Assembly (NCBI GenBank): GCA_964291215.2
Contig: OZ219791.1
Coordinates: forward strand, 2,016,001 to 2,080,000
Source of the DNA: Alphaproteobacteria bacterium
GTDB taxonomy: Bacteria > Pseudomonadota > Alphaproteobacteria > MPNO01 > UBA830
Length of the DNA stretch: 64,000 bases
Direction: 5' to 3'
This document shows, piece after piece, positions 925-58,209 of the stretch (position 1 is its first letter; the number at the start of each line of letters is the position of its first letter). Made by a program: the position numbers and the translations under genes. The notes beneath the pieces were generated by a model that was not told the origin of the DNA, did not search any database, and saw only the letters and a list, made by a program, of their open reading frames with translations.

Positions 925-3900
925 GTATCTACTCACCCCTAGTTGGGTTCTGATTGGTCGTAGTGCTAGTTGATGATGTCTGCGGCTTTTCCGTCGAGGG
1001 CGATCTGGGTTGCGACGAGTGGGTTGTAGCCGAGTGCCGCCATGGAGGTGAGGTAGCTTGAGCCCCGGCACCATGCTTTTGCGTGGAGCGGAAGCATCCG
1101 GACACCTTGACCTTCTGTTCTCCGGCATTGTTGGTGAAGCTGACGTTGGGTGCGCCAGGCAAACTGGTGGAATGTGGCCGGGTGCAAGTCCCGAGAGAGG
1201 CTAATTTCTCCGTGAACCATGCGTCGCCAGGCGAAGCGTTGGGGAGCGGCAGGCTATTGAGCCACGAGATGCTTTGAAACCGGAGTGCCGAGGTCGTGGC
1301 CGAAGGCAACGAGCCGCGTTGGTGAGGCGAACGGGGGCTCCGCGGGGTCCGAGAACCAGGGCACGCGCCGAAGCAGGGACCTGGGAGGTCTTGCCCCTCT
1401 GTCGTGGAGGGGCCGCAGAGGAAAGGGACTAATCCGTAAACCGATGATGAACGAGAAGTCAGATTCGGCCATAGTACCGCTGAAGGCGGCGAACAAGGGT
1501 TCTTCGGAGCCTGCGGAGTTGTTGGAGGGAAGGGCAATGCGGTTGGCCCGCGCCGCGCGCAGAAGCGGGGGTCACAGGCGGCTGAACGCAGGTAGCGAAG
1601 AGGAACCCGGAAGAGCGTCTTTACTCCACCACGTGACGGTCGACGTTCTGCACGATGCGTTCCATTCCTTGAGGAAGGACGCGGCGGCGGGGCGTTGTGT
1701 GGCAAGCGTACGCGGAGGGTGTGGAACTGCCTGCACGCCCGTGTGCACAGGGGTGCGTACCGGGCGCCTCCAGGGTTTACATACCCAAGGAGGGGCAACG
1801 ACCGCTTGCCTCGGACAAGATTCTTCAGCGGGCGGTGTGATTCTGGTGCCGCGAGACGGAGTTCCTCGGGTGTAGTTACGGCTTCCGGCCGGGGCGCATC
1901 ATGCGCCGTCACGGTGGAACGGCGGAAGGTCAACTGGATCGTTGACGCCCCTTCGACAACCGCGACCATCTGGTCGCGATGCTCACGGATCGGGGGGTCT
2001 GATCATCAAGTGACGCCGGCGTCATGGAAGGGACCGACTGGCAAGGGAACACCGCAAGGGGCGGCGCCATGCCTTGCGAACCTGCACTACGTACGACTGG
2101 TTCCAGAACCACTGGCGCAAGCGGATGGCTGGAGGCGACACGATCATTATGCGGACGACTTCGTGTGCGGCTTTCAGCATCTGGGCGGCGCTGAGACCTT
2201 GGGGAGAGACTGGCCCACTTGAACTGCACCCGGAAAATCATCGAGTTCGGTCGGTTTGCCAGAGCGAACCGCCGGAAGCGTGGGCAAGACGTTCGACTTC
2301 CTCGGCATGACGCACTTCTGCGAACAGACGAGGAAAGGCAGGTTCAGGGTCGGTCCATCTCGCAAACGGGCACCCTGCGGCGGATCAAGGAGGCCTTGCG
2401 CATGCGGTGGCACGATAACCGGCACGAAACGGCCAAGTGGTGAGTTATCAACGGCTGCTACTACGCCGTTCCAGGAAGCAGCCTGCAGAAGTTCATACAC
2501 CAATGCAAACAGCTGCGTGCCCTTCGGCGACGCTCCCAAAAGGACTTCACCGGGGACATAGACACCCTCACCGCTGCCCACTGAGCCAGCATCCGCCACC
2601 CGTGGCCAAACCAGCGCCTTGTCGTCAGGGGAGGAGCGAACAGCGCACGTCCGGTTCTGTGCGGGGGGCAACCCGGTTCCCTACCGCGATGGTCGTCTGT
2701 GAAGTGCAGGTTTTCGTGTTTCACGAGACGTTCGTGCAGGTTGTGCGCGTCGGACTTGCGTCCATGTTTTCCTTTCGGCGGCGGCGGGATGTCGGGCAGT
2801 TCCCTGGTGCCCTGATGGTGCGGTAGCGCTTGTGCACGGCCCGGCGGTCAGCCTCGTTCAGGGTTTTTGGATGCGCTCTTGTTGACCTTGTGGCAGGGAG
2901 CAGGCTCTTCATCAGTCGCGCGGTAGCCTCGACGACAAAGGTCAGTTCGCGCAGCAGGTGGCTACCACACAACTGGTGGCTACACTGGCCCATGTACGAG
3001 GCCCAGGACGCCCTTGTAACACGGGCCGATCTCTTGCTTGCGGTGCGGGAACTTGCACGTCAGGGTCCCACGACATGGAGCCACTTGCTGTTGATCCGAA
3101 ATCGTCGACATCGGGCGTTGCAGGAGGTGCGCCACGGCGGCCTCCTCCCATGACGCATCGTGAAAGCATAGCTGAGGCCTCGGAGAGCTTGATGCCGGAG
3201 ATCGCCTGCACGAACGCGACGGCGCAGGGACAGCATCTGGGCGACCAGCAGGTTGATGACGAGGGCCTGAATGCCGATGCCGTACTGCACGGGATGTTGT
3301 CGGGGAACCGGCCCTTGCACTTCGGGCATTCCTTGATCTCGGCGCGGCGCTCGACGACCTCGAACACGATGTCGTGCGGCGCTCCCGATCGACGGGGCCG
3401 TCGATGTCAGCGCCGCAGGCGTCGCAGGCCGCGACCGTCTCCTCGACGATGGTCTTGCGCAGGTTGTCGCCCATCTGCCGGTTCGGCTTCGGGCCGTTGC
3501 TCCCGGCACGCTCTTGTCCGTCTGTGACGGCGGCAGACCGGAGTTCCGGCTCGTGCGTAGTCTTCTCCAGAAGGACGACGATGAGGATGTCGAGCAGGAT
3601 GACGAAGACGCGGATCACGGCCTCTTCCGCCACCTTGCCGGCAGCGCCGCGGTCTTGGCCGCTTCGAACTCCTCGCGCGCCGCCCGTCGCCATCACCCGG
3701 CCTTGCGCTTCATCAGCGCGCCGCCTCCGAGATGCGTTTCCACATACAGATCATGCGGGGGCTGGAGCCCCGGAAGCAGCTGGCACAGCCCGCTCGTCGC
3801 CTTCGATCCAAAGTAGCCCACTGGCGGTCCCCTCGATGACCACCACTAAACGAATCGGCCTGCAGTGTCAAATCTCCACGTAAACCCGTTCGTTACTCTA

Positions 3901-3938
3901 CCCCGACATCAAGCCGGAACCAGGGGGTGAGCAGTTAC
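925..3938 (-). mobile_element. Degenerate IS66-family element (copy A) carrying a group II intron
   Basis: Terminal IRs GTATCTACTCACCCC (925) and GGGGTGAGCAGTTAC (to 3938); fragments CDACGAD, ECPKC, HQLCGSHLLREL, FTNNAGEQ; near-identical to 53968-55529. Confidence 0.85.
1150..2690 (+). mobile_element. Degenerate group II intron with frameshifted RT/maturase
   Basis: 5' GTGCG; 3' domain V/VI-like sequence CACGTCCGGTTCTGTGCGGGGG...CCCTACCGCGAT; RT fragments GTPQG, LANLHY, YADDFVCGF, FDFLG; removing it restores the uninterrupted IS66 sequence of copy B. Confidence 0.88.
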
Positions 3939-3939
3939 A

Positions 3940-4605: not shown

Positions 4606-5204
4606 CGTTTAGCGAACGCAAGACCGGATATTCGGCTACCATCCGCCTGTCCGATCTTGGGTTCGTATCCGTCACCGAACATGCGGTTGGCACGAAGCAC
4701 GGCGTCACGCTCGTCAGGTCGTCCGGACGCCATGACGGAACGGACCACCGCGCGCTCGGTGGATGGATGAACCACAGCGGGTTCTTTGTGCAAGACGAGC
4801 GGTCCACCGTCGATGGCATACGGTTAGATGTCCGAAATGGCATCGCCGGTGGCGATCTAACGGGGGCGCGACCGCTCGGAAGCGCGACATGGCAGGGTTT
4901 GATGGTCGGCACCCCGGCCACGGGCGGTGGCGACAGGCTTCAGGGCGATGCGAGCCTGACGTACGACATGAGCTTCCGAACGCTGGATGCCGCGTTCACG
5001 AACATCCAGAACATCGACCGGCTCCGCGCTCACTCTGTCTCTACCGTTCGCTTCGCCAGTGTCTCTGTAGGCGCGGACGAGACGTTCCGAGCCGGTGCCA
5101 CGGGCAACCACATTCAGGGCGGCTTCTACGGTTCCGGCCATGCCGAGGCAACGGGCGTCTTCGAGCAGCAGAACATCGTCGGAGCCTTCGGCGCTCGGCA
5201 GTAG
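4606..5204 (+). pseudogene. C-terminal beta-barrel of a TbpB-like surface lipoprotein, 5' part lost at IS66
   Basis: GSATWQG.MVG, IQGGFYGSGHAEATGVFEQQNIVGAFGARQ; frame begins abruptly at the IS66 end. Confidence 0.75.
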
Positions 5205-5465: not shown

Positions 5466-6518
<1,053 letters not shown>

Positions 6519-6580
6519 CAAGATCCACGCCTCGCCAAAAATCCACCGACCGACAGCACCTCACGCCACGACCAAACAAA

Positions 6581-7306
6581 ATGACCATGTTTACCGGACT
6601 TGACGAGGCGGTTGTAGTTGATGTTGAAACAACGGGCCTTGATCCGAAGACAGACAGAATTGTTTCTGTTGCACTAATCCACGCAAATTTTAGAAATCTA
6701 AGAGAAAATCTCAACAGCTTAAGTGGCAAGACCATGGACGTTGTTATCAACCCACAACGTCGAATCCCTAAGGAATCCTCTCGCATACACGGAATCACAG
6801 ATAAAGACGTGGCCGATAAAGGGTCGTTTTCGGAGATTGCGCAGGAATTGCGGGATTTCATTGGAGACCTCCCCATAGTTGCCCACAATGTGTCGTTTGA
6901 CAAAAAATTCCTCAATCAGGAGTTAAAGAGAGCGGGCATAAAGACAGTGGCCCGGAATAAGAGCTATTGTACGATGCGGAGATTTCGAGAATTCAACCAT
7001 GGTCAGATCAAAGGGAGTAATCTAGATGATGTTGTGGAAGTTATGGGAGTAGAGGGGCGAAAAGGGGAAATACATGATGCCATCGAAGATGCGACGTTGG
7101 CATGGCAAGTGGCGGCACTATTTTATATGTTGGATAATCGTATAGAGATTCCGGCAGGAAAACCGGCTGCTCCATTGCGGAGTGGAAAATTAGAGAATGA
7201 TAGAATATCCAAGTATCAATCTGGAGAATCCAAGTCGAGTGTAGGGACTATTGTAGGCGCATTTGTCGTAGCTGTAATTATCGTAGCTGTGCTGTTGGCG
7301 TGGTAG
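6581..7306 (+). CDS. DEDDh 3'-5' exonuclease with C-terminal transmembrane anchor
   Basis: VVDVETTG, HNVSFD, HDAIEDA; ends VGTIVGAFVVAVIIVAVLLAW; AT-rich. Confidence 0.88.
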   Translation: MTMFTGLDEAVVVDVETTGLDPKTDRIVSVALIHANFRNLRENLNSLSGKTMDVVINPQRRIPKESSRIHGITDKDVADKGSFSEIAQELRDFIGDLPIVAHNVSFDKKFLNQELKRAGIKTVARNKSYCTMRRFREFNHGQIKGSNLDDVVEVMGVEGRKGEIHDAIEDATLAWQVAALFYMLDNRIEIPAGKPAAPLRSGKLENDRISKYQSGESKSSVGTIVGAFVVAVIIVAVLLAW

Positions 7307-9796: not shown

Positions 9797-9905
9797 TGGG
9801 CGTCTTTCTCCTCGCAGATGCAAGCTGCCACGAATTTCTCCCTCGCCGGGACCCGATCACAGATATATGGGGAAAGCGAGCCGGAACGGCAGATGTTTTT
9901 GATTT

Positions 9906-12900
9906 GGTACTGTAACTTGATGTCTGGAAATTTGTCTGAGGTTTGCGCTTTGAGGCGTTTCACTGGGGGGGGGGGGGGGCTAGCCCTCGCATGTCACGGA
10001 AATTTTAGCTGGACAACGGTGTTTCGGCGTGGCATAAGTGTCCCATGTCACAGATCAGCCGCACATTGCGGGACGAGGCAGCAGTTGCGCGGATCGCGTC
10101 GCTGCTGTCCTGTGAGCAGTTCGACAGCCGGTCGGCTCTGGGTCGTCTGCGAGGAGTTTGCCTTTGTCGACGCGCGCGGCCGTCTGCAGCTTGCCGGCTG
10201 CCTGAGGGCGCTGGGCGCCCGGAGATCGTCCTGCCGGCGCCGAAGTCACCGACAATCGACCGCCGGCCTCGCCTGTTGGTATCGCTGCAGAGGTTCCGGC
10301 GCGCGCATTCGGGATCATCGTGGTCGGGGATCGTATTGACCGGGCGGTCACGCTGATTGCGCGTGAACACCCGCGACGACCTTCGCCGGCTGCCAATATC
10401 TCGTGGGCTCGGCGCACGGGTGGCGGGGTTTGCCGCCGCCGCGCGGCGCGGGACCGCTGGATGGAACGACGGGCAGCGCCGGGGCCACCTGCAGCGGATC
10501 GTCTGTCTGAGCCGTTTCTTGATCAGGTGCTCTGCCCGCCCAGCCATGTGCGCATCCTGCGCCGCGTGACTTCGAGGACCGTTTCGACCATGGCTCAGTT
10601 TTGCCGATGAAGGTTACCCTGCCTGCGCGCGGCCAACTTCCTGTGCAGGACCGAAGGCCGGCAGGATCGGGAGCACTGGGAGACGGTGAAGACGGTCTTC
10701 GTGGCCGAACTGGAGCGCGCAGGAAGCTGGGGAGGTCGATCATGCGCCCTCGCCGGGCGAAGGTCTGAACGACTGGGCGCAGAACGAGTTTGGAGGGGGG
10801 TGACAAGCGACTTTCTGCGCGCCTGGAGCGCCGGCCTTCTGGCGGCCGGTCAGAAGATCAATGCGTCTCCCAGCGCCGACAACACCGCGATCAATGCGTT
10901 TTACCGGATGGTCGCCCTCGGAGATCACGCCGGCGAACATTCTTGCGCCGCACCGGCAGCATCCGTGGCCAGAAGACGGTTCTTGCGGCACGGACCTGAA
11001 CTTCTCCCGGCCTGCAGGTGAGAACCAGACCGGGGCCTCAAGCCTGCACGCGACCCTGGCGGTGACTGACCTGCCACTCGGGGTGCTGGGTCCGGTGAAG
11101 CCCCGGTCGCAGGAGACACGCCGCAGCTCGAGGGGTTCAAGGCGCTGCCACCCCGGCGGCAAGACGCGCGTCATCTCCGTCGGGAAGCCGACATCTTCGA
11201 GCTGTTCGACACGCGCTTGCCCCGCGTCGATCTGCGCGCCAAGCATGACAGGGTGCTGAAGGAGGGAAGGCTGTTCGCCGTCATGGCCGGCGGCCTGATT
11301 GAGATCGAGGGACTGACGGAGCAAGCCAGCCGGAAGAAGGCCCGCGCGACAGAAGCGCCTGGCGAGTTACGGTCCGTCACCCGTGACGGGCACCGCCCCC
11401 AGCGCGAAGCCGGTGTCCCTGCACGGGGTCAGGGAGCGCCCGAGGGTGAGGATCCCGTGGTGCCTGCTGACCACCGTGCGGGTTGGCACTGCGAAGGAGG
11501 CGGCCGACATCGTCGGCTTCTACCTTCAGCGCTGGCGAATCGAGGATTACGTGCTCAAATCCGGATGCAGGGTGGAACACCTGCTGTTCCGCACCGCCTG
11601 CAGCGGGCGATCAACGCCGTCATCGCATGGCGCATCATGGTCATGACCCTGCTCGGCCGCCAGGTGCGAGCCGCAGCTGATGTTCACCGACAGCGAACTC
11701 GCGCGACTACGCACACAAGTACGCCCTGAAGGAACCGGAGCGTCTCGCCGATGCGGTGCACCTGGTCGCCCATCTCGGCGGCTACCGCAGCACGCCCGGG
11801 TCACCAGATCATGTGGCCAGACACACCAGCGCCGCACTGGGTCACCAAATCGGCCGGGAAATCGGGTTCCGGGATGGACAAAGACACGCGTGAACACGTA
11901 AACCATTGTCAACCAGATTTGTCATGACACGGCAGGGCTAGCCCCCCAGTGAAACGCGGCACCATCGTACTATCCCATGGAGTTGGAAAACATTCATGGA
12001 GGAAGCGAATGGACCTGCGACACACTACGACGATCGGGACTGTTTTGGAACATCTGATCGCAAACGGAGCAACGGATCTGGGGCGGGTCTTTGGCCAGCT
12101 CTTCGAGCTTGCGATGCAAATCGAGCGCGAGCAGTACTTGAAAGCGGGCCACCGGAGCGACAGGGCTATGCCAACGGCTACAAACGGATCGACACCCCCA
12201 CTGTTACCGTTCAGGTGCCAAACGGTCACGGGGACGACCCCCCCCCCCCCCCAGTCGCTTGAACGCGGCCAGCGATCTTCTCGCGCCGTAGCCGAGATGT
12301 ACATCAAGGGTGTTTCCACACGGCAGGATGTAATGCGCGAGTTCGGGAGCCTGTCCTCTTCTCAGGTCAGCCGGGCCACCAAGTTGCTCGACGAAGAACT
12401 CGCCGCGCAACCGGCCCCTGATGAAATACCTGGATGCGCGCCATGAAAAAGCCCGCCATGACGGCGTTGTGCGCGATGTCGCAGTGCTCTCGGCCATCGG
12501 AATAGGGGCTGCAGGCACGTTCCGGGGCTCTCTGTGGCGCTCTCCGAGGCCGAGGTCCATTGGAGAGCCTTCCTGGAAAGCTTGCTAGCCCTGCATGGTA
12601 CGACCTTCATCGTCTCGGATGCCGGGCTGAAAGCGGCACGGTGCTGGGCGCGGCGACATGGCAGCGCTGCCAGTTCCACCTGGCACAAAACGCCGTGCAC
12701 CGAACAACGACATCAGGAAACGTATTGGAAAACAGCTCGGAGCCACGCCTCCTCACTCCAAACCGCCGAGGCTGAACTGGCCGCCCTCGTGGCCAGCGAC
12801 AAGCATCCAGGCTTCCTGGCTGGAAAACAATGCGGGGCTCGCTGTCTTCACCTTGCCCGATGCTCACCGCAAGCGTATGCGAACCTCGAACGGCATCGAG

Positions 12901-13083
12901 CGACCGATCCAGCAAGAACTCAAGCGGCGCACCTCCAAAGTCAGGGTCTTTCCGAACCTCGCCTCGTTGGAGCGCCTCTCGACCGCAGTCCTCATCGACG
13001 AAAAATGGGAAACCGAAACCAAGATCAAATGGGAACAGCTCGATCAGCTTCACGACAATTTCCAGACATCAGGTTGCGTAATC
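9906..13083 (+). mobile_element. Degenerate IS256-family element interrupted by an IS4-like element
   Basis: IRL GGTACTGTAACTTGATGTCTGGAAATT at 9906; IRR ...AATTTCCAGACATCAGGTTGCGTAATC ending 13083; fragments MYIKGVST, WQRCQFH, RTSNGIER, RVFPN. Confidence 0.88.
9984..11937 (+). mobile_element. Degenerate IS4 (IS50-like) element encoding a DUF4338-transposase fusion
   Basis: Imperfect IRs CCCTCGCATGTCAC / GTCATGACACGGCAGGG; CTAG-centred duplication on both sides; fragments CEEFAFVDARG, CLSRFLIR, READIFELF, WCLLTT, YLQRWRIE, LKSGC. Confidence 0.8.
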
Positions 13084-13922: not shown

Positions 13923-13992
13923 CTAGCCCCCCCAGTGAAACGCCTCAAAGCGCAAACCTCAGACAAATTTCCAGACATCAAGTTACAGTACC
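13923..13992 (-). mobile_element. IS256 left end (solo)
   Basis: Matches 16389-16457 and the reverse complement of 9906-9983. Confidence 0.85.
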
Positions 13993-14514: not shown

Positions 14515-14544
14515 GTGCGTCTCCCTTGATTCGCGGTTCCTGCC

Positions 14545-14575
14545 AATCTAAGCTTTCCAGTTACTGGAAGGTCAA
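14545..14575 (-). promoter_or_regulatory. MerR/CueR-type promoter-operator driving the DUF4396 gene
   Basis: Minus strand TTGACC, 19-bp spacer containing dyad TTCCAG-TAA-CTGGAA, then TAGATT. Confidence 0.85.
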
Positions 14576-14592
14576 GGGGGGGGGGGGGCGGT

Positions 14593-45108: not shown

Positions 45109-47266
45109 GGGCGACAGATCGCCGGGCCGCCATTCTCCGCGCAGGCATCAAGCCAGCGCAGAACGTCGAGGCCGCTCCTCGCGACCGTGTCGTGTACATG
45201 ACCGCCGACAGCTGTCCATGCTGTCGGAACCGAAGCCGGGCTTCCGCCCGTTGACCGGGCCCCTGAGAGCCCTTTCCCCGAAATTGTTGTCCATGGTCGA
45301 CGAACACGCGATGGTTGAGCGCAGCGGCCTGCCTTCCGGCGCCGCTTTAGGAAGCCTCGGCGCTTCCGCAAACAGCGCGGCGACCGCAGTCTCCGGCCTT
45401 TGAATGGTACACTGTAAACTCGATGTTGGCGTAGTCGCCCCGGTAGTTTTCAGTGAACAAGATCAGGTATCCTTCCCGGAGTTTGTGGGTGCCCGGCTGG
45501 TGCTTCGACGGGATGAATCCGGCGAGGCGCGCGGTGTTGACGGCGAACTCCGCGATCGCCTGATCCGGGTCGGGTGGACCGCGTTGCCTGCGGTGGTTCG
45601 GTATGTGGACGGCGAGGACATGGATCTCGTGGACGATCGTGCGTGCCGGCATGGCGCTCCGCGCGAGGATGACGGTGCATGCGGCAATGGCAGGCGAGGC
45701 ACTTCCTCAGGTCGTCGGCGGCGTTGAGCCCCTTGATCCGCGTTCCGGTCTTGACGGCCGCGAACCACTCTCAGCCAGCGTTTCCAGGCGCGGATCGCGT
45801 TCTCCTGCGTGGGCTCACCTTCGGTGGTCAAGAGCAACCAGCCGGTCCTGTCGGCGGCGTCTTCTCCAGGACGCGCACTGCGAGCATGGTGAGTGGGGCC
45901 GTGCCCAGGGCGGGACAAAGGGACCCGCAGCTTGTTGCGCCCCTTGCGCGTCCGGGGGCCGCCACAGGTCGATCGTCTTCTCCGCGACGATGTCCAATTC
46001 GGCCGCGAACAGGTCCCTGGCCTTGCCGTCCGCCGTGATGGCCCGCCCGAACGGCTGGCGCGGACCAGAAGCCGCCGGGCGCGGGGGCGCAGGCCTCCGA
46101 CAGGAGAGACCACATGTCGCCCTCACGGTCGCAGACGGGCGGGTTCGCGGACAGGCCGTCTCGGCAGACTTGGCGAAGGCGTCCGTCCGCTTTCCTCGCC
46201 CGCCGTCGCCTTGTCCTCCGCGCGGAATCAAGGCTGAATACCCCCGGTGCGCAGCCGCTGAACGCAACGCCGACATGAGCCCCTTGCTTCCGGAACCGCC
46301 AATGTCGACAAGGCCCTGCGTCGCCTCGCTGTAGTTCAGCATCCCTGAACCGCAACAGACTGGCTGCGGCAACGCATCGCCTCCTGATGCGGCTCAAGGA
46401 TGTCTTGCATGCCGATCCTCGGGTTCGACAGGAACCTGCAAGCTGCTCCGCCTCGCCGGGAAAGATCACCGGTGCACCCGGACGACCGCACCAGGCCTCG
46501 CCCATCGTGACAAGGCGCTGTGCGCGCTCCGTCCGTACTCCGCCATCCTCCCTTGACGCGGGCCTGAACTGATCACCCGGCCCGCTCGAGAGACCAGTCC
46601 GCCGACAGCGGCTTCACGTACACCCGCAACCCCTTGTCCGGCAGCACGCCGCCGCATGGCAGCCCGTATGCTCCGCACCCACGTAGCTGTACGCCAAGCG
46701 AACACCGTAGCGCTCCTCCCAGTCACGCGACCATGGAACAGCGCCACGGACGCAAGCCCGCGGACGCCGGGAAGAAACCTGTCATTATTGACAACCCGCT
46801 CGATGTTGGCGTCCCGCGCCGCCAGCCGATGTGGAGGTCCCGCGCTTTGTGATGCCAGGACGCAGCGCCAGGCCGCCGAGGACGCCGTGCAGGGACGAGA
46901 ATCCAGTAGCGGATGCCCGGGACAGGCCGCATCGGGATGATACGATGCCATCATCGACCGCGCCAGCGACTTGTCCTCGTCGGCAACCGGAATCACGCCA
47001 AGATCGCCGAGACGGCACGACAGGTGTCTGTCGGGATAATCCGGCGACGGGGCCAGGGACTCCGGGGTCACCGAGCCTCCGGCAGACCGAGTGCGGCGGA
47101 GAACTTCGGAAGCACGGCCGAGGCATAGTTCTCCCTTCGCGTTCTGCCAGTCCTCGCGCTCGCAGAGCTCACGTGCCAGGAAGGTCCGCGTGCAATCCCC
47201 GGCGCCAAGCCGTGCCTTCAGCCAGTCAACCGTCTCGCCACCATAATGTCGCAGGCCGATTCTCAT
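45109..47266 (-). mobile_element. Degenerate IS4-family element with DUF4338-transposase fusion (second type)
   Basis: LARELCEREDW.N.KG, MMASYH, RVVNNDRFL, LNYS, WLLLTT, ARLAGF. Confidence 0.72.
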
Positions 47267-47331
47267 GGAACCGTATATACGGCGTCAGTTGCTTCGAGTT
47301 AATAGTGATAAGTTGAAAGCCCCCCCCCCGT

Positions 47332-47939: not shown

Positions 47940-47989
47940 GGGCACGATGTTAGCATGCGGCGCGAGTAAAGCAATGGGGAATGACCTGC

Positions 47990-50900
47990 ATGCCGCTCGT
48001 ATTCGGCCTCGACATCGGCACCACCTCGGTCGGGTTCGCCGTGATCGAACACGATGCCGCGCTCGCCACGGGAAAAATCCACCGTCTCGGCGTCCGGATC
48101 TTTCCCGAGGCGCGCGATCCGAAAGGCGTGCCGTTTAACCAGGAACGCCGTCAGGCACGCCTTCGTCGCCGTCAACTGCGCCGTCGGCGAGAGCGCCGGC
48201 GGTTGCTCGGCGATCAACTGTGCACGGCCGGATTGCTCCCATTGCGCAACTCGCCCGACTGGGGTCGGGCAATGAAGCGTGATCCCTACGAGCTACGGAG
48301 GCGCGCTTTCGAAGGGGAGGCCCTGTCTCCGCATGAAATCGGCCGCGCCATATATCATCTTGCGCAGCGCCGCCACTTCAGGGGCCGCGACATCGACGAG
48401 GTTTCCGACACTGCCGACGATGCAGCCGACGACGCGGACGAGAAGACCGCGACATCGGCGCGAGAGCAAACAGTTCAGGCATTGAAGCGCGAGGGCAAGA
48501 CGCTAGGCGCCTGGCTCGCCGCGCGTGGACCGCATGAACGCAAGCGAGGCGAGCATGCCACGCGCGATATCGTCGAGGACGAGTTCGACGCGGTGTGGAT
48601 GCCGCTCGTTCCGGAGCCATTCCGCTCCTCGGTGCGGGACGCGATCTTCGTCCAGCGGCCCGTCTTCTGGCGGCTGAACACGCTTGGCAAGTGCCGGTTC
48701 GTCCCCGACGCGCGTCTTTGTCCGAAGGGATCCTGGCTCTCGCAGCAGCGGCGCATGCTCGAGAAGCTGAACAACCTTGCGCTTGTCGGCGGCAATCAGC
48801 GTCCTCTCGACCCCGAAGAGCGCCAGGCGATCCTCTCCAGACTGCAAACGCAGGCCTCGATGACGTGGAGAGGCGTTCGGAGGGCGCTCGCACCACTTTA
48901 TCGGGCCCGAGGCGAGCCCGGCGAAGAGAGGGCGCTCAAGTTCAACCTGCAGGAAGGCGGAGAGAAGAAACTGCTCGGCAATCCGGTCGAAGCGAAGCTG
49001 GCGGATATCTTCGGCGACGACTGGCCAGAGCATCCACGCAAGCAGGAAGTCCGGGATTCACTTCCCCAACGGATTTGGCAGGCCGACTACGAACAAGTGG
49101 GCGAGGAGCGCGTGGTAATTCTTCCCAGGGCCGAGCGTGCGGCTCGCAGGGCGGAGCTCGTGCAGAATTTCGTCTCGGAATTCGGCCTGTCGGACGATCA
49201 GGCGACCAAGATCGAGACATTGAAGCTCCCGTCAGGCTGGGAGCCCTACTCCGTTGAGGCGCTGCAGGCAATGTTGCCGCATCTCGAAGACGGGGTCAGG
49301 TTCGGAGAACTGGTCATCGGTCCGGATTGGGAGGGCTGGCGCGCTGAGACATTTCCCGGTCGGGATCAGCCAACCGGAGAAGTGTTCGACCGCCTTCCGA
49401 GTCCGGCCGAACGCGAAGAAAGGCAACACGTCGCCAGCCTGCGCAATCCGACGGTCGCACGGACGCGCAACGAGTTGCGCAAGGTGGTCAACAACCTGAT
49501 CGACCTGTACGGCAAGCCCGACCTGATTCACGTCGAAGTCGCGCGCGACGTTGGCAACTCCAAGCGCCAGCGCGATGAAAAGGCGTCCGGCATTCGCCGC
49601 CAGGAACGGCGCCGGAAGGCGGCCCGCGAAGCGCTCCAGCAAAACGGGATTGCGGAACCAGCGCGCGCGGATGTCGAAAAGTGGATGCTCTGGGAGGAGT
49701 GCGGCCACCGCTGTCCGTACACCGGGGACACGATTTCATTCGACGCCCTGTTCCGCACCGGGGACTTCGAGGTGGAGCACATCTGGCCGAGATCCCGCTC
49801 GCTCGACAACAGCTTCAGGAACAAGACCCTCTGCCGCAAGGACGTGAACCTCCGAAAGGGCAACCAGACCCCTTACGAGCTCTTCCGAAGCAACGAGGAA
49901 GAGTGGGATGCGCTTGCGAACCGGCTGGCCGGCATGAAGGCCGCCAAGGGCGGAACGGGCATGTCTCCCGGCAAGATCAGGCGGTTCCTGGCACCGTCCA
50001 TCCCCGAGGATTTCGCCTCCCGGCAGTTGAACGACACCGGTTATGCCGCCCGCGATGCGGTCGCCTATCTCAAGAAGCTGTGGCCGGACCAGGGACCGGA
50101 AGCGCCGGTGAAGGTCTTCGCCGTATCAGGACGGGTAACGGGCCACCTTCGCCGGTTGTGGCGCCTGAACAACATCCTGGCTGATGACGGCGAGAAGACC
50201 CGCGCCGATCACCGCCATCACGCGATCGATGCGCTGACGGTCGCCTGCTGCCACCCGGGGATGACGCAAAAGCTCTCGCGTTATTGGCAGGAAGAGGACG
50301 ATCCCCGCGCGCCGCAGCCGCACCTTCCTCCGCCCTGGAAAACGATCCGAAGCGACGCCGAGAGGGCGGTTGCGGCCATCGTCGTGTCCCATCGCGTCCG
50401 CAGGAAGGTCTCCGGACAGCTCCACAAGGAGACGATCTACCGCGATACCGGCGAGGAAATCGCCGGCGCGCGCGGAACGACCTACCGCTATTTCGTCCGC
50501 CGCAAGGCCGTCGAAGAACTGAAGAACTCGGAGTCCGAGCGCTTCAACGGGACCAGAATCATCGACATCGTCGATGACGGCGTGCGTGACATCGTCCGCG
50601 GCTGGGTCGACAAGCATGGTGGAGATCCCAGCGCGGCGTTCGTGCACGGCTATCCCAAACGGGGCAGGAAAGGCCCGGAAATCCGCAAGGTCCGTCTGCG
50701 CGTAAAGCGGCAGATCGAACTGATGACGAAAGCCTCCACGGGCTATGCCGACCTGGGCAACAATCATCACATCGCGATCTACCGGCTGGCCGATGGAACC
50801 GTCGATTACGATGTGGTCAGCCTGCTGGAGGCATCGCGGCGCAAGGCGCGGCGCGAGCCCGTCGTCAGGAGAGATCGCGGCGACGGCACGCAGTTCGTGA

Positions 50901-51121
50901 TGTCGCTGGCTCCCGGCGACACATTGCAGACCAGCGAGAACGGCGAGGCGAAGCTACGCGTTGTCACGGGAGTATGGAGCAACGGCCAGATAGTCATGTG
51001 TGACAACGTCGATGCAGCCAAGGCGACTGAGACTCGCCCCGGCGCCAAGACGATCGTCTCGAGCGGCGGCAAGAAGGTCTCTGTCGATCCGATCGGTCGA
51101 ATCCGTCTGGCGAACGACTAA
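47990..51121 (+). CDS. cas9: Type II-C Cas9 (about 1043 aa)
   Basis: RuvC-I GLDIGTTSVG, Arg-rich bridge helix, RuvC-II HVEVARD, HNH VEHIWP..N...N..K, RuvC-III HHAIDA; start may be 47981. Confidence 0.97.
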   Translation: MPLVFGLDIGTTSVGFAVIEHDAALATGKIHRLGVRIFPEARDPKGVPFNQERRQARLRRRQLRRRRERRRLLGDQLCTAGLLPLRNSPDWGRAMKRDPYELRRRAFEGEALSPHEIGRAIYHLAQRRHFRGRDIDEVSDTADDAADDADEKTATSAREQTVQALKREGKTLGAWLAARGPHERKRGEHATRDIVEDEFDAVWMPLVPEPFRSSVRDAIFVQRPVFWRLNTLGKCRFVPDARLCPKGSWLSQQRRMLEKLNNLALVGGNQRPLDPEERQAILSRLQTQASMTWRGVRRALAPLYRARGEPGEERALKFNLQEGGEKKLLGNPVEAKLADIFGDDWPEHPRKQEVRDSLPQRIWQADYEQVGEERVVILPRAERAARRAELVQNFVSEFGLSDDQATKIETLKLPSGWEPYSVEALQAMLPHLEDGVRFGELVIGPDWEGWRAETFPGRDQPTGEVFDRLPSPAEREERQHVASLRNPTVARTRNELRKVVNNLIDLYGKPDLIHVEVARDVGNSKRQRDEKASGIRRQERRRKAAREALQQNGIAEPARADVEKWMLWEECGHRCPYTGDTISFDALFRTGDFEVEHIWPRSRSLDNSFRNKTLCRKDVNLRKGNQTPYELFRSNEEEWDALANRLAGMKAAKGGTGMSPGKIRRFLAPSIPEDFASRQLNDTGYAARDAVAYLKKLWPDQGPEAPVKVFAVSGRVTGHLRRLWRLNNILADDGEKTRADHRHHAIDALTVACCHPGMTQKLSRYWQEEDDPRAPQPHLPPPWKTIRSDAERAVAAIVVSHRVRRKVSGQLHKETIYRDTGEEIAGARGTTYRYFVRRKAVEELKNSESERFNGTRIIDIVDDGVRDIVRGWVDKHGGDPSAAFVHGYPKRGRKGPEIRKVRLRVKRQIELMTKASTGYADLGNNHHIAIYRLADGTVDYDVVSLLEASRRKARREPVVRRDRGDGTQFVMSLAPGDTLQTSENGEAKLRVVTGVWSNGQIVMCDNVDAAKATETRPGAKTIVSSGGKKVSVDPIGRIRLAND

Positions 51122-51133
51122 ACTAGCCCGGCG

Positions 51134-52069
51134 ATGATCCGCAAGACCATCGAGTTTTCGACGCCCGGCACCCGCCTCTCGGTTGCACACCGGCAGCTCG
51201 TGGTCGAGCGGCCCGACCTGCCGAAGGCGACCCTTCCGATCGAGGATCTCGGCGTGGTCATCGTGGACGACACTCGGGCGACCTACACGCAGTCCGTCTT
51301 TCTGTCGCTTCTGGAAGCCGGTGCAACCGTGCTGGTCACCGGCCGCGATCATCTCCCCGCCGGAATGATGCTTCCGCTCGACGCGCATCACGTTCAGACG
51401 GAACGTCACCGGGCCCAGGTCGAGACCAGCGCGCCGGTCCGCAAGCGCGCCTGGCAGACGATCGTGCGGGCCAAGATCGTTCAGCAGGCCACCGTGCTCT
51501 CCCATTTCACCGGAAATCACGGCGGCCTCGTTCCAATGGCTCGCCGGGTTCGCTCGGGCGATCCCGACAATCTTGAGGCCCAGGCTGCGCAGAGATACTG
51601 GCCGCGCCTGTTCGGCAAGACCTTCCGCCGCGACCGCGAAGCCGAGGGTGTCAACGCGCTCCTGAACTACGGCTATGCCGTCGTCCGGGCGGCGGTGGCC
51701 CGTGCGGTGGTCGCGGCCGGCTTGATTCCCTCTCTCGGAGTTCACCATCGGCATCGCAATAATCCGTTCTGTCTTGCGGATGATCTGTTGGAGCCGTACC
51801 GCCCCTACGTCGACTGGCGGGTCCGTCAAATGGCCGGCGACCATGCCGAGGCCGCGCCCGATCTGTCCGAACGGAAGACCCGCGCCGAACTTCTCTCCTT
51901 GCTCAACGAAACCGTGCACGTCGGCGGGCGCCGCGAACCCTTGATGCTCGCTTTCCATGCCAGTGCAGCCTCTCTGTGCCGAACGCTCACTGGCGGCGAC
52001 CGCACTCTGGCGCTTCCGGAAGGACTCCCCGTGGAGCCCGATCTGGTCGATGCCGCTGAGATCGGTTGA
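51134..52069 (+). CDS. cas1: Type II Cas1
   Basis: SGDPDNLEAQAA..YW, NALLNYGY, H....NPFCLADDLLEPYRP. Confidence 0.97.
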   Translation: MIRKTIEFSTPGTRLSVAHRQLVVERPDLPKATLPIEDLGVVIVDDTRATYTQSVFLSLLEAGATVLVTGRDHLPAGMMLPLDAHHVQTERHRAQVETSAPVRKRAWQTIVRAKIVQQATVLSHFTGNHGGLVPMARRVRSGDPDNLEAQAAQRYWPRLFGKTFRRDREAEGVNALLNYGYAVVRAAVARAVVAAGLIPSLGVHHRHRNNPFCLADDLLEPYRPYVDWRVRQMAGDHAEAAPDLSERKTRAELLSLLNETVHVGGRREPLMLAFHASAASLCRTLTGGDRTLALPEGLPVEPDLVDAAEIG

Positions 52070-52101
52070 GCCTGCCGCGGGGGGGGGGGGGGGGGGGGGG
52101 G

Positions 52102-52437
52102 GTGAAAACAATTCCGTGGGGCTGGCGCACCATGTGGGTAATCGCGATGTTTGACCTGCCCACCGACACGCCGAAGGCGCGCAGGGCCTATACGAGATTC
52201 CGCAAGAATCTGCTCAACGACGGCTTCACGATGATTCAGTACTCGGTTTACATTCGGCACTGTGCATCGATCGAGAACGCCAAGGTTCACGCGACCAGAA
52301 TGGGTCGTCGGGTGCCCTCGGCCGGAGAGGTCCGATTCCTGACGATCACCGACAAGCAGTTCGGCCGCATGGAAACCTATGTCGGGAAAACCCGCGAGGC
52401 ACCGCCGAATCCGCCCGCCCAGCTGGAATTTTTCTGA
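52102..52437 (+). CDS. cas2: Cas2
   Basis: MWVIAMFDLP, FRKNLLNDGF.MIQYSVY, ITDKQF; start uncertain because of the upstream G24 tract. Confidence 0.95.
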   Translation: MKTIPWGWRTMWVIAMFDLPTDTPKARRAYTRFRKNLLNDGFTMIQYSVYIRHCASIENAKVHATRMGRRVPSAGEVRFLTITDKQFGRMETYVGKTREAPPNPPAQLEFF

Positions 52438-52487
52438 CCAGTGGGCGGACGAAAACGACGTTTATTCAATGCCCTACGTCGAGGGCA

Positions 52488-53571
52488 ACTGTAGCAAATC
52501 GAGAAGCGGCCGCAATCCGCAGCGAGCTCGACGTCGGACCGGCGGCCGTGCGCACTGTAGCAAATCGAGAAGCGGCCGCAATCCGCAGCATGAAGAATAG
52601 CGACAAACCCCGCAGCGTCACTGTAGCAAATCGAGAAGCGGCCGCAATCCGCAGCGTTAGCTATGTACTCGGCGCAACCATCAGTACTGTAGCAAATCGA
52701 GAAGCGGCCGCAATCCGCAGCCTGATCCTCATAGGAGATGCTCTTACCTGCACTGTAGCAAATCGAGAAGCGGCCGCAATCCGCAGCGCGCGACGCCGAC
52801 GCCGGGCTTGCCTTCGAACTGTAGCAAATCGAGAAGCGGCCGCAATCCGCAGCCAGAACCGGCTTCGCAACGTCCGGCCCTGCACTGTAGCAAATCGAGA
52901 AGCGGCCGCAATCCGCAGCGTCCGTAATGCCAAGTCCCGAGTCAACAGAACTGTAGCAAATCGAGAAGCGGCCGCAATCCGCAGCAGTAATCGAGGAAGA
53001 CGTGGGATTTTTGACACTGTAGCAAATCGAGAAGCGGCCGCAATCCGCAGCCTCTCAGGATCTACAATGAGTACTTCAAATACTGTAGCAAATCGAGAAG
53101 CGGCCGCAATCCGCAGCGGCCTCGCCCGTCAGGAGGCGGACGCCGACACTGTAGCAAATCGAGAAGCGGCCGCAATCCGCAGCTCGCGCAGAGCTCCAGT
53201 CGCCACCGGCACCACTGTAGCAAATCGAGAAGCGGCCGCAATCCGCAGCGCAAGCGTCTCAGGGTCCTTGAGCACCGCGACTGTAGCAAATCGAGAAGCG
53301 GCCGCAATCCGCAGCAATCACCCACGGCAAAGCCAATGCCTGTCAACTGTAGCAAATCGAGAAGCGGCCGCAATCCGCAGCGATGCCCCTTGATGACCTG
53401 CCCGCCCGCGCACTGTAGCAAATCGAGAAGCGGCCGCAATCCGCAGCGCCCTCCGCGAACGGAACACCACGTCGGTGACTGTAGCAAATCGAGAAGCGGC
53501 CGCAATCCGCAGCATATACCGCCCGGCATCGTCCAGCCATCCGACTGTAGCAAATCGAGAAGCGGCCGCAA
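52488..53571 (-). CRISPR. Type II-C CRISPR array: 16 full 36-bp repeats plus one truncated 28-bp repeat, 16 spacers of 30 bp
   Basis: Repeat ACTGTAGCAAATCGAGAAGCGGCCGCAATCCGCAGC at a 66-bp period; minus-strand form ends TGCTACAGT (extended -10-like) and pairs with the tracrRNA. Confidence 0.98.
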
Positions 53572-53967
53572 GCCGCGTGCAGGCCGCAGCCGAGGACATC
53601 GTCAACAAGCTCAGGGCCCGGAGGTTCCGCGCCGACGCTCTGGAGGAAGACGCACGCAAATTGCGACCGTCAACCTCGACAGCCTCGAGCACGAGAACCC
53701 GCGCCCGGTCGGCTGCCTGTGCCTCGAGGCGCGATCCCGGCTTCACGACCTCGGCATCACGGGCCGCGAGTGTGCTGATCGTCGCCAGGATGATCCGCCA
53801 GCGAGCGCTGGCTGCGCGATGACAGCGCGACCGCGGAGCTTCCGGATCCGGAGGGCAAGTCGCTGTACCGCATCGGCGACCTGCGCCACCGGGCCGCCAT
53901 CCGGAAGGAGCTGTTCAACCGCGAGCGCGCGCTGCATCCCCGACACCATCGCCTTTTACGATCTCAC

Positions 53968-55529
53968 GTAACTGCTCACCCCCTGGTTCCGGCTTGGCGT
54001 CGGGGTAGAGCAACGAACGGGTTTTCGTGGAGATTTGACATTGCAGGCCGATTCGCTTAGTGGTGGTCATCGAGAACGACGAGGATCGCCAGTGGGCTAC
54101 TTTGGATCGAAGGCAACGAGCGGGCTGCGCCAGCTACTTCCGGGGCTCCAGCCTCCGCATGATCTGTATGTGGAAACGCATCTCGGAGGCGGCGCGTTGA
54201 TGAAGCGCAAGGCCGGGTGATGGCGACGGTCAACGCGGCGCGCGAGGAGTTCGAAGCGGCCAAGACCGCGGCGCTGCGTGCGGCCGGCAAGGTGGCGGAA
54301 GAGGCCGTGATCCGCGTCTTCGTCATCCTGCTCGACATCATCATCGTCGTCCTTCTGGAGAAGACCACGCACGAGCCGGAACTCCGGTCTGCCGCCGTCA
54401 CAGACGGACAAGGACGAGAGCGTGCCGGGAGCAACGGCAAGGGCCCGAAGCCGAACCGGCAGATGGGCGACAACCTGCGCAAGATCATCGTCGAGGAAAC
54501 GGTCGCGGCCTGCGACGCCTGCGGCGCCGACATCGACGGCCCCGTCGATCGGGATCGTCGCGTCCTCTACGACATCGTGTTCGAGGTCGTCGAGCGCCGC
54601 GTCGACATCGAGATCAAGGAATGCCCGAAGTGCAAGGCCCGAACCAAGGGCCGGTTCCCCGACAACATCCCGTGCAGTACGGCATCGGCATCCAAGCCCT
54701 CGTCATCAACCTGCTGGTCGCCCAGATGCTGTCCCTGCGCCGTGCCGTCGCGCTCGTGCAGGCGGTCTCCGGCATCAAGCTCTCCGAGGCCTCGGCTATG
54801 CTTTCACGATGCGTCATGGGAGGAGGCCGCCGTGACGCACCTCCTGCAACGCCCGATGTCGATGATTTCGGATCAACAGTAAGTGGCTCCATGTCGTGGG
54901 ACCCTGACGTGCAAGTTCCCGCACCGCAAGCGCGGCCGGGAGGCAAGAGATCGGCCCGTGCTACAAGGGCGTCCTGGGCCTCGTACATGGGCCAGTGTAG
55001 CCATCAGTTGTGCGGCAGCCACCTGCTGCGCGAACTGACCTTTGTCGTCGAGGCTACCGCGCGACTGATGAAGAGCCTGCTCCGCGAGGTCTGCCACAAG
55101 GTCAACAAGAGCGCATCCAAAACCCTGAACGACGCCGGGCCGTGCACAAGCGCTACCGCACCATCCTCACGCAGGGCGCCAGGGAACTGCCCGACATCCC
55201 GACGAAAGGAAAACGTGGACGCAAGTCCGACGCGCACAACCTGCACGAACGTCTCATGAAACACGAAAACCTGCGCTTCACAGACGACCCCGACGTCAGC
55301 TTCACCAACAATGCCGGAGAACAGAAGATCAGGATGGCAAAGGTCAAGGTGTCCTGATGCTTCCGCTCCACGCAAAAGCATGGTGCCGGGGCTCAAGCTA
55401 CCTCACCTCCATGGCCGCACTCGGCTACAATCATCACGTCGCAACCCAGATCGCCCTCGACGGAAAAGCCGCAGACATCATCAACGAGCACTACGACCAA
55501 TCAGAACCCAACTAGGGGTGAGTAGATAC
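53968..55529 (+). mobile_element. Degenerate IS66-family element (copy B, intron-free)
   Basis: IRs GTAACTGCTCACCCC / GGGGTGAGTAGATAC; 8-bp TSD GATCTCAC at 53960-53967 and 55530-55537. Confidence 0.92.
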
Positions 55530-56126
55530 GATCTCACCAATGTTCACGGCCGCGCCGACGGCAAGCTGCCCCGCTTCGGGCGCTCGAAGCAGAAGCGCAA
55601 TGATTGCCCCACGCTTGCGCGGCGCAGGCTTTCGGCGCAGTTGCGAGGTCTTGCGGGGCAACGTGGCCGGGCACGGATGCGCTGTCGAGGCTGGAGGCGG
55701 GCCCGGCAGCGAAGCCGACGGCAGTCATGGACGCCGGTACCGAGGCGAACATCGCGTGGCGGGCACGGCTGGATCGCGGGCGGCGCCGTCCGAGGGTGGG
55801 CCCGAGGCTGATCATCAGCACCAACCACGAGGTGCAGGCGCCTTGCCAGTGAGGATGGCGCGGCGTGGTCAGCGAGAGCAGGAAGAGGGCCGAGGACGCC
55901 ATTCCTGACCGCAGGGCTTCGAGGCGGCGCTGGAAAAGCTTCATGACGGCCTCTCGGCCAAGGGCCGGCTCAAGCGCCACGACAAGGTGCTGGATAGCGG
56001 TCTCAGGCAGCGCTTCTCCACCGTCGTCCGGCACTACGAGATCACCGTCGAGAAGGCCGGCGCCAACGCAACTGCCGTGCGCTTCAGCCACAGACGACAA
56101 GACAACGCGGGCGCCTGCGCACCAGC

Positions 56127-57405
56127 GACCGGGAGACCGTCCTTATATGACCAGGTTTTGTCCCCTTGATGATGAAATCATCCACAGCAGTTGGGGGCGG
56201 GAAAATGTGGATAACCTCGACTATGGGAGAGCTATGGTTGCAGAGAGATTCCGCTCCCCTGTGTGAGAACGTACAGGGGATCAAACGATCTTCGCGGAGG
56301 TTGCCGTTCCGTCCTTGGCTTTATAGAGCCGTTCCCGAGCGTGGCAACCTCCTTTGGCGTCCCTTGCGTCCTGAATGGATGCTTGGGTTTGAACCGTATC
56401 ATCATAAGGCGAGGAACGATGGTCAAGGTAGTAGCAGGGGTCAGCCAGTCTGGACATCTGGGGCGTCGTTTTACGAACGACGCCACGGGCACGTGGCTTC
56501 GCAGCCTCGAGGTAACCCGTGTGGTGGGCGACAGGTCGCTATCACCGCAAGGAGTGTCTTCATGACCGGGGCTTCGAGGTTGTCCTGCCCGTTGAGGGCT
56601 TCGCCGAGGCTTTGGGCCAACCGCGTTGACGCCAAGATCGGCACGGTGCGATCTCGAGCCTGTGGCCCCTCAGGAAGCCTTCCTCAACTGCCTGGGGGAT
56701 CTCCTGGTGCCGCGCTTGTCGACGTGCGCACCAAGCTGAGGCAAGTGGCAGATGAGGTGGATGGCGAGACCGTCACAAGGGCTTCGGCGGCCGATCTCGA
56801 TGATTGCCAAGCTGGATGCAGTGATCAAAGCGGTGATCCCGAGCAGAGGTACCCTGACCTCGATCCAGTGACCGCCGCAGCCCTTCTTTGTTGGATGCCC
56901 GAACTCGGCAGCGTCGGCAGCCTTGATCGGGGTGGCGCCGATGGCCACGGTACTCGGCATATCCGAGGCGGGCGCCGGAGGCCACGTGATCTCCTGTTCA
57001 TGGCCGCGACCTCGGCAGCACGCTTCAACGCGGATCTGGTGCGCCACAAGGCCCACAAAGTCGCCATTGTCGCCGTGATGCGCAAGCTCTGGCGAACACC
57101 TTGCTGCGACAGCAGCGTTGCTGGTCGACCGAAGCACCGGTGAGTGAGCGAAGGAGACACGGCCCTGCCGAGAGCGCGATCGGGACTGTATCGACAGTCT
57201 CCCTCTACGACACGACTTGGGGAGAATGTCTGCAGATCATCGTCGAGGCCGACATCGAGGAGACGCCGTGCGGCTTGTGGACGGGACACCTGGAACCCGG
57301 ACGGTCACGTGCCCGGGGACGGCAAGGTAGCCGCGTTCACGTGACCAATGGACGGCAACCCGCCGCCGGGACCACAAGCTTCATGTCGCCTCGCTCGCAG
57401 GGCAA
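56127..57405 (+). mobile_element. Degenerate IS110-family element with long non-coding flanks
   Basis: TAAALLCWMPELG, HIRGGR...R..LFMAA.SAARFN, HKVAIVAVMRKL; boundaries approximate. Confidence 0.72.
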
Positions 57406-58209
57406 ATCCCACACCGCTTGTGGACAACCACAGAAAACATCACCGCAGACACCCGCAAAAATCTTGCCAAGAAACATGGATGCTCGGGACATGGATATCG
57501 AGGCCACCTTCCGTTCATTGAAATCCGAGCCCGGATTGCGCCCGGCCAGCGCATCGCCGCCCACCTGTTGATCGCCGTGCTTGCCGCGGTGCATCTAATC
57601 CCCGCGCGGGGCATCGACAAGTGCTGGACATCAATCCGCGAGAGCATGCGGAACCAGGGTCACCACGCACCTGCGCCAGGCGCGTTGATTGTCAACCGAC
57701 AGGACACGCACCGCCGAGGTTGCCGAAATCTCCTCGGCGGCTGGTGTCGAACCCGCCGCACGAGGAGCCGCCTTACAAGCTGACAGAATTCAACAGGATG
57801 TAGTGCCATGTTGAAATCGGCCGACAAAAAAAATCACGCAACGTGATAAAAATTCCAGGCCGCAAAAAGTGCCAACTTGGGACAAGGCCCCGCTGACTGC
57901 ACCTCTCGCCCCGACAGAAACCGCAACCATCCGGGCGCGGCAACCAAACCCGGCAGGGCTCTCGCTCGCCCCGGACACGCCGAAGCCGACCAATCGCGCC
58001 CCGCTTGGTGCTGCAACAGGGCATCAGACGTCAGCAAATCTCAAAATCGCAGACTCGAACGCGTCGACCCGCGCCGCGATCAAGACTCCGATCACATCAA
58101 CAAGCACGGGATCATCGTGCGATGCTTTTTCAGCCGCGTTGTGCAATACAGCGCGAGAGGCTAGGATCACTGATCCGTTTCTGGACCAGTAATTACAGGG
58201 AGAGAAGAC

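Follow-up and report, generated by a model that had tools for sequence, protein, structure and literature searches.

High-copy mobile elements in the stretch of DNA analysed here, 64,000 nucleotides (nt) from the genome of an uncultured Alphaproteobacteria bacterium (G000, C2:2016001-2080000; hereafter the window), lack many short segments of one narrow size class, 5–7 nt, and these deletions probably spread from copy to copy by a size-limited, deletion-biased gene conversion. The elements include insertion sequences (ISs) of the IS66 and IS256 families and a group II intron. A first-pass annotation of the window had described them as eroded by small deletions between tiny direct repeats; the defining feature, the 5–7-nt size, was missed.

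G000 measures 6.15 Mb in two contigs and is 99.3% complete. Repeat blocks make up about 30% of it, its largest IS families hold about 180 near-full copies, and its GatB protein shares at most 70% identity with any of the 80 matches listed. It is compared here with a sister species (G001; 1.04 Mb examined, about one-fifth of that genome, with 704 kb alignable to G000 and the repeats collapsed), with G002 (same genus, mostly 66–81% DNA identity), G003, and G004 (400 kb examined of each of these three), with G036 (same order, other family), and with contigs of three read runs (X1, X2, and X3) from one study. No match above 80% to the window families (IS66, IS256, and others) was seen in G001, and no close DNA outgroup for the elements was found among plasmids (71% at best). 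An intact outgroup IS256 transposase of 393 amino acids (aa), P0008, serves as the reference for the polarity of IS256 deletions.

Size and microhomology of the deletions

Across 70 survey windows of 450 nt that sample high-copy DNA throughout the genome (at most 40 copies per window; some of the raw counts are alignment variants), 743 of 1,263 distinct deletions measure 5–7 nt, with 21, 183, 344, 216, 62, and 12 deletions of 4, 5, 6, 7, 8, and 10 nt, respectively. Distinct deletions of 4, 5, 6, 7, and 8 nt number 9, 58, 132, 86, and 20 in a survey of five families (341 copies). A second peak at 12–14 nt, about one-fifth of the main peak, needs no separate cause, since it is small and its nested alleles show merged neighbours. 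The upper bound of the size class lies at about 7–8 nt in G000 and at 6 nt in G002.

In IS256, change is almost entirely towards loss. Pooling 66 near-full copies rebuilds 389 of the 393 P0008 codons (351 identical), with two 6-nt stretches missing, and each copy lacks 5–24 segments relative to P0008 (median 18); 1,076 of the 1,165 deletion instances are of 5–7 nt, and insertions number three. Intact 393-aa IS256 transposases elsewhere are about 91% identical to a fragment.

Among 254 clean deletions of 5–7 nt, microhomology of 0, 1, 2, 3, 4, 5, and at least 6 nt is found in 74, 70, 46, 32, 16, 8, and 8 cases (130, 74, 31, 12, 4, 2, and 1 by chance). Homology of at most 1 nt accounts for 144 of them (57%), and flanking direct repeats are thus not the rule, the examples quoted in the first-pass annotation belonging to the high-homology tail; at least 3 nt is present in 64 cases versus 20 by chance. 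Self-complementarity of the deleted segments is at chance (13, 23, and 14 pairs versus 18, 20.5, and 14 expected), giving no sign of hairpin formation, and no k-mer within 40 nt beyond the junction stands out as a restriction site at fixed distance.

Sharing of deletions between copies

Copies of these elements are recombined mosaics, with sequence exchanged between dispersed paralogs. In IS66 and IS256, the four-gamete test is failed by 64%–99% of substitution pairs and 71%–95% of deletion pairs; in the IS110-like and intron families, where subfamily structure is kept in substitutions but less so in deletions, four gametes occur in 10%–42% of substitution pairs and 42%–65% of deletion pairs. 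Linkage decays within about 20 nt (r2 is 0.15–0.33 at distances below 10 nt and at most 0.03 past 80 nt), and genomic distance is without effect. Such short linkage would be compatible with ordinary conversion tract lengths at these copy numbers.

Allele frequencies are strongly skewed towards the deleted state. At 204 deletion sites (survey windows with at least 30 copies, a segment kept by one copy being taken as ancestral), 69 exceed 90% frequency, compared with 4.9 under a neutral 1/i spectrum, and 27 lie below 10%, compared with 88.5. Rare alleles make up 1,142 of 1,569 substitutions; clean isolated 5–7-nt deletion alleles are common in 226 of 249 cases and rare in 23. Among IS256 deletion sites at a frequency of at least 8%, 16 of 23 exceed 50%, versus 6 of 136 derived amino-acid changes. 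Copies with a deletion are less diverse within 25 nt of it than the other copies at 18 of 19 and 12 of 15 sites. Reading frame makes little difference, mean allele frequencies being 0.55 for in-frame 6-nt, 0.53 for 5-nt, and 0.49 for 7-nt deletions; deletions above 30 nt (mean 0.14) and those of 1–4 nt show a much weaker sweep. Single copies carry about 1–5 private substitutions and 4–52 deleted sites, and the two counts are correlated at rho values of 0.21, 0.03, −0.12, and −0.01 in four families.

One IS66 pair with both junctions in common differs by 15 deletions, all in one partner; duplicated loci yielded one clean pair only, the rest being confounded by truncated ends and CTAG hot spots. 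From this single one-sided pair and the frequency skew, length differences appear to be resolved towards the shorter allele. Another single case is the IS256 copy nested in a young IS66, whose deleted sites are the fewest of all (4 of 23, median 16.5). The IS256 inserted in the young IS66 at G000:C2:1662803-1666405 was already broken; the IS256 family has therefore been mobile recently, although all 66 near-full copies examined are defective.

Copy number

The number of 5–7-nt gaps per substitution is 0.012, 0.027, 0.020, 0.064, 0.13, 0.20, 0.24, and 0.30 for elements with 2, 3, 4, 5–7, 8–15, 16–40, 41–90, and more than 90 copies, respectively (the ratios from 2 to 5–7 copies come from a self-comparison of the genome with high-copy DNA masked). 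The suspicion of a repeat-dependent effect is thereby supported, the load being 25-fold higher with copy number. An IS256 present in two copies is intact (49 substitutions, zero gaps), and gaps of 5–7 nt are also lacking in a 12-copy IS66 whose 463-aa transposase is intact. The latter, a young element of 2,273 bp (G000:C2:295700-298000, L237, and 11 further copies), has copies 3–9 substitutions apart with few gaps of 3–82 nt and offers a natural time-zero control. Shredded copies with perfect target-site duplications (TSDs), reported at first pass, are indeed frequent: the 8-nt TSD is perfect in 71 of 105 IS66-family copies, and flanks thus erode far more slowly than element bodies.

Single-copy DNA and genes

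The single-copy pseudogenes proposed as controls proved unequal to that role—605-924 of the window has no other copy, 4606-5204 has one, and 43246-43635 has six—and G001 was used instead. Within genes of the 704 kb aligned, 44 stretches of 6 nt are absent from G000 and 1 from G001; the corresponding losses are 3 and 2 of 5 nt, 1 and 0 of 7 nt, and 15 and 10 of 3 nt. In 68 kb of intergenic DNA, losses of 5, 6, and 7 nt number 13, 25, and 14 in G000 (0.76 per kb) versus 1, 2, and 3 in G001 (52 versus 6). Of 75 in-gene events queried against outgroups, 8 were covered, and all four decisive 6-nt cases are losses in G000, including one in gatB: its deletion is in-frame and derived, the residues being kept in 77 of 77 outgroup GatB alignments and the loss absent from the G001 alignment. 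The first-pass description of housekeeping genes as intact thus holds for their reading frames, with gatB an exception at the level of residues. Fibronectin type III repeat paralogs (6–11 genes; L230, G000:C2:2935000-2939300; open frame of about 1,300 aa) show in-frame indels only.

As the same size class appears in the G001 comparison and in the fibronectin paralogs, the process acts throughout the genome, with selection sieving its products in genes, and is 15- to 30-fold denser in high-copy repeats. The earlier proposal of a deletion process exposed in unselected DNA is supported.

Sequence preference and related genomes

Deletions in repeats show a loose sequence preference. A pyrimidine at +1 (the second position) on at least one strand accompanies 74 of 75 zero-homology repeat deletions (56.7 expected), 66 of 286 repeat deletions start with AT (37.7 expected) and 38 with ATC (21.8 expected), and the motif model reaches a log-likelihood of 193, versus 55–76 in four null runs.

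In G002, gaps of 4, 5, 6, and 7 nt between repeats number 2, 24, 31, and 1, a peak at 5–6 nt, and after strict de-duplication T stands at +1 in 12 of 12 events. The signal is weak in G004 (5 six-nt gaps among 27 distinct), and G003 is uninformative. IS256 matches in G036 are without a stop in 34 of 35 scored. In G003, a 612-bp unit is repeated in tandem about 30 times at a contig start (C1:1-18264, L199), and an ISAs1-like transposase (DDE_Tnp_1_assoc; L229, G000:C2:356438-358497) has an N-terminal Druantia DruA match, with 13 full copies and TSDs of 8–9 nt.

Repair genes and proposed mechanism

MutS and MutL of G000 are encoded in open frames of 981 and 670 codons, and open frames for RecA and RuvC are likewise present, as judged from the sequence. 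Ku (PF02735) was not found in G000 or 24 family members, nor was ATP-dependent ligase (PF01068) in five genomes of the genus. Searches of G000 found no NucS, topoisomerase IB, RecT, Vsr, S1/P1 nuclease, UvdE, or endonuclease VII and no Piwi domain (short Argonautes may be missed by the search), and 0 of 112 spacers of its clustered regularly interspaced short palindromic repeat (CRISPR) arrays have a full-length match outside the arrays. One DinB-like match (PF00817) is present in G000, none in G001, and two each in G002, G003, and G004; Vsr has eight matches in G002. Two adjacent DEDDh exonuclease genes (PF00929) lie at 5550-7306 of the window, the 241-aa product being a dnaQ-sized candidate.

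Under the conversion model, deletions of 5–7 nt would arise genome-wide at about 1% of the substitution rate, and IS copies would recombine ectopically, probably by a RecA/RuvC route. When an intact and a deleted copy pair, loops of up to 4 nt would be handled by MutS and MutL without net loss, setting the lower bound; the reported limit for MutS, which binds indels of up to four nucleotides (PMC8235422), matches the lower edge of the size class. Loops of 5–7 nt would instead be resolved by cutting out the looped strand, perhaps with a weak preference for a pyrimidine at the second loop position. Loop-directed loop removal is an activity described in yeast extracts (PMC2504288). If the looped strand is removed, then each deletion spreads and insertions are purged; a new deletion would be driven through its family until the last intact transposase is lost. 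A core repair nuclease seems more likely as the loop remover than a special gene.

Several observations weigh against this model. Single-copy deletions do not show the pyrimidine motif (it is missing from 7 of 26, with 6.2 expected by chance), and AT starts there are at chance (14 of 86 versus 13.4); because it is absent from this set, the preference may belong to the spreading step. Single-copy deletions are also richer in long microhomology, in a set blurred by 7% divergence. Outgroup polarity covers the IS256 family only, and per-copy allele combinations are read from assembled contigs. Of the 13 IS256 amino-acid changes with a frequency of at least 10%, 6 likewise exceed 50%, so the contrast between deletions and substitutions rests on the scarcity of rare deletions. 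Deletion count in IS66 is weakly but positively tied to private substitutions (p 0.009 for the rho of 0.21). Copy number and element age are confounded, since the gap-free 12-copy IS66 is young. No loop-removing enzyme emerged from searches of G000 for nine nuclease, ligase, annealing, and guide families, all of them absent. Finally, the lower size bound is not absolute, as bacterial mismatch repair (MMR) still repairs loops of 5–8 nt with falling efficiency, according to the same loop-repair source (PMC2504288).

A wider reading can be offered tentatively, with less confidence than conversion itself: that a repair activity clipping 5–7-nt loops in heteroduplex DNA constitutes a size-locked, homology-driven deletion drive that turns transposon success into extinction. 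It would be a counterpart of repeat-induced point mutation (RIP) that spreads deletions, with a species-specific taste in size and sequence, and would push two-codon deletions into essential genes.

Alternative explanations

Sharing might reflect recurrence if a sequence-preferring cut-and-rejoin activity deleted 5–7 nt de novo, again and again at the same hot sites. The sharp size and the motif (including T at +1 in G002) do suggest an enzyme, and in the IS110-like and intron families homoplasy is greater for deletions than for substitutions. The motif is, however, far too loose to pick 25–55 sites per element, and at most sites a single allele dominates, its ends being the same in as many as 152 of 159 copies. 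Substitutions are shuffled as well, and diversity is reduced beside deleted alleles. As the rise with copy number and the lower intergenic density would also go unexplained, this is an unlikely account.

Nor is it likely that the deletions arise during transposition or retrohoming, accumulate in non-autonomous masters mobilised in trans, and are then distributed by unbiased conversion. Perfect TSDs on broken copies, the broken IS256 within a young IS66, and the relative sparing of element ends would fit such an origin. One size class nevertheless runs through DDE elements, IS110-like elements, the group II intron, fibronectin-repeat paralogs, and single-copy genes; no family with clear ends has a 5–7-nt TSD (these are of 8, 8–9, or 4 (CTAG) nt or lacking), and the IS66 pair of common origin differs by one-sided deletions.

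The first-pass annotation raised a repeat-directed inactivation loosely like RIP. Its repeat dependence is supported, though confounded with element age, and a dedicated, selected system deleting 5–7 nt in multi-copy DNA would account for the copy-number effect, for broken transposases even in the least-deleted copies of the largest families, and for the stop-free IS256 matches of G036. Such a system is quite improbable, given that alleles of 6 nt, which keep the frame, are the most frequent and sweep just as well, that single-copy genes and intergenic DNA are hit, that no guide system came to light in searches for Piwi domains (which may miss short Argonautes) and for self-targeting among 112 spacers, and that no tested gene tracks the trait.

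The other mechanism put forward at first pass, a mutator background with ordinary slippage during replication or end-joining at microhomologies, is very unlikely. It has on its side the three-fold enrichment of microhomology of at least 3 nt, greater still in single-copy DNA, and a report of microhomology at about 40% of the deletions in bacterial pseudogenes (PMC6054270). Yet the sizes described there follow a power law with an excess of multiples of three (3n), whereas here 2–4 nt is near-empty and counts drop 18-fold from 7 to 10 nt; most deletions have at most 1 nt of homology, the mismatch-repair frames are open, Ku and ATP-dependent ligase were not found, and sharing and the frequency skew go unexplained. 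As a sole cause it is largely refuted; it may still supply the raw alleles.

An assembly or consensus artefact in repeats is highly unlikely, although the check rests on contigs rather than raw reads, from three runs of one study of which X1 may be the source sample. Run contigs contain 5–6-nt variants at summed depths of about 850–3,500. X1 is exact over 7.6 and 6.7 kb of single-copy DNA, five G000-specific losses of 6–9 nt fall within a 14.3-kb X3 contig that carries 31 substitutions, and contigs of X1 and X3 span the gatB junction. Losses of 6 nt persist in genes, those of 5 or 7 nt hardly at all (44, 3, and 1), a filter that an artefact would not produce, and the clean young 12-copy IS66 and both CRISPR arrays assembled without such gaps.

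Elements of the window

The features of the window that bear on the deletions are as follows (lost sites are segments kept by other copies).

925-1149, reverse strand: IS66-family copy A, part 1 (split by the intron); matches 55289-55529; contigs in three runs join 1149 to 2691.
1150-2691, forward strand: group II intron (Rfam RF02005 at 1185-1357); 58 other copies; lacks 37 segments kept elsewhere (24 per kb).
2691-3938, reverse strand: IS66-family copy A, part 2; 177 other copies; 29 lost sites (23 per kb).
9895-11957: 14- to 15-copy element, called IS4 at first pass (no family support from Pfam); 7–11 lost sites per kb.
11935-13083, forward strand: IS256 copy; 21 deletions relative to P0008.
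13084-13943: second piece of the 14- to 15-copy element (also called IS4); 8 lost sites.
15193-16395, reverse strand: IS256 copy; 15 deletions relative to P0008, all of 5–7 nt.
25668-25669, reverse strand: junction of the derived in-frame 6-nt deletion in single-copy gatB (25195-26640); evidence from the G001 alignment, the 77 outgroups, and X1 and X3 contigs.
38822-39500: piece of a 37-copy element; 14 lost sites.
39500-40600, reverse strand: IS630-like element; DDE_3 and HTH_32 matches just below cut-off; 42 other copies; 16 lost sites.
43700-44900, forward strand: IS30-like element; HTH_38 below cut-off; 60 other copies; 17 lost sites.
45130-47330: unnamed element (IS1634 at first pass, not confirmed); 36 lost sites.
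52488-53576: type II CRISPR array, an unaffected control; 16 spacers, all of 30 nt, none self-targeting.
53968-55529, forward strand: IS66-family copy B; 174 other copies; 26 lost sites.
55541-57881: nested elements, including an IS110-like copy at 56141-57487; 15–18 lost sites per kb; PF02371 on a related copy.

The indels quoted in the first-pass annotation are found where it placed them: gaps of 12 and 6 nt separate IS66 copies A and B, and a gap of 7 nt the IS256 pair. Losses in both directions between its two IS4 copies are confirmed for the 11077/13084 pair, and many deletions are, as it proposed, common to several copies. BLAST gaps and mismatches number 15 and 38 between IS66 copies A and B, 9 and 30 for the IS256 pair, and 6 and 10 for the 11077/13084 pair. 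Every high-copy window element tested lacks 7–24 short segments per kb kept by other copies; those with 6–7 copies mostly lack 2–4 per kb, with one at 16. Family labels hold for IS66, IS256, IS630-like, IS110-like, and the group II intron; IS30 is backed by the sub-threshold HTH_38 match only, and IS4 and IS1634 found no Pfam support. Since most six-frame fragments of window elements gave no Pfam match, such eroded families escape annotation.

An intact cas9-cas1-cas2 locus with a 17-repeat array occupies 47981-53576, and IS66 copy B lies about 400 nt beyond the array; a second CRISPR array of 97 repeats is found at G000:C1:574173-581180. Both arrays assembled without 5–7-nt gaps. A repeat of about 210 nt resembling a miniature inverted-repeat transposable element (32433-32643, more than 100 genomic matches) sits between housekeeping genes, and single-copy genes for a DUF4396 protein and a MerR-family regulator (14071-15036), syntenic in G001, lie between the two IS256 copies.

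Comparison with known systems

RIP introduces C-to-T changes de novo through a dedicated methyltransferase-like protein. The outcome in G000 is similar in that repeated DNA is selectively ruined; in contrast to RIP, existing deletion alleles seem to be copied, and the effect extends to single-copy DNA. A 2009 paper by Cordaux, to judge by its title, reports gene conversion linking non-functional ISs of a bacterium, Wolbachia wBm.

More than 70% of Wolbachia ISs are non-functional, decaying over time by substitutions and deletions; unlike in G000, neither a fixed deletion size nor a directional sweep is described in the accessible portion of a further paper (PMC3205602). The deletional bias of bacterial pseudogenes (Danneels and colleagues, 2018; PMC6054270) resembles the situation in G000 in the excess of deletions over insertions, partial microhomology, lack of Ku/LigD (in most genomes there), and 3n excess. 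Its sizes follow a power law, whereas in G000 the 2–4-nt range is nearly empty, counts drop sharply beyond 7 nt, alleles are shared, and the load depends on copy number. MMR-independent large loop repair likewise handles loops beyond the range of MutS, including loop-directed removal, but acts on tens to hundreds of nt, the Escherichia coli proteins being unidentified according to that paper (PMC2504288); in G000, deletions above 30 nt do not sweep.

Closest in kind is the deletion-biased nonallelic gene conversion of flies and primates, in which deletions are copied between paralogs and insertions removed, leading to cooperative shrinkage. That system is eukaryotic, with a bias of about 3.4:1 and no size lock reported in the text available (PMC3280953); G000 is bacterial, with 1,165 deletions versus 3 insertions in IS256, a 5–7-nt lock, and families of up to about 180 copies. 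If true, the mechanism proposed here would give a testable route to IS-family extinction after bursts and to bacterial deletional bias, by an indel drive that is non-adaptive yet curbs transposons in proportion to copy number. Such a drive would leave a readable signature (5–7 nt, shared, and swept) and predicts a bacterial short-loop repair activity with a defined substrate. A literature search, its coverage mostly outside subscription papers, found no bacterial report of size-locked, shared, and swept IS deletions. Deletion-biased conversion between paralogs is thus already known in animals, and its size-locked bacterial form appears, on that search, to be new.

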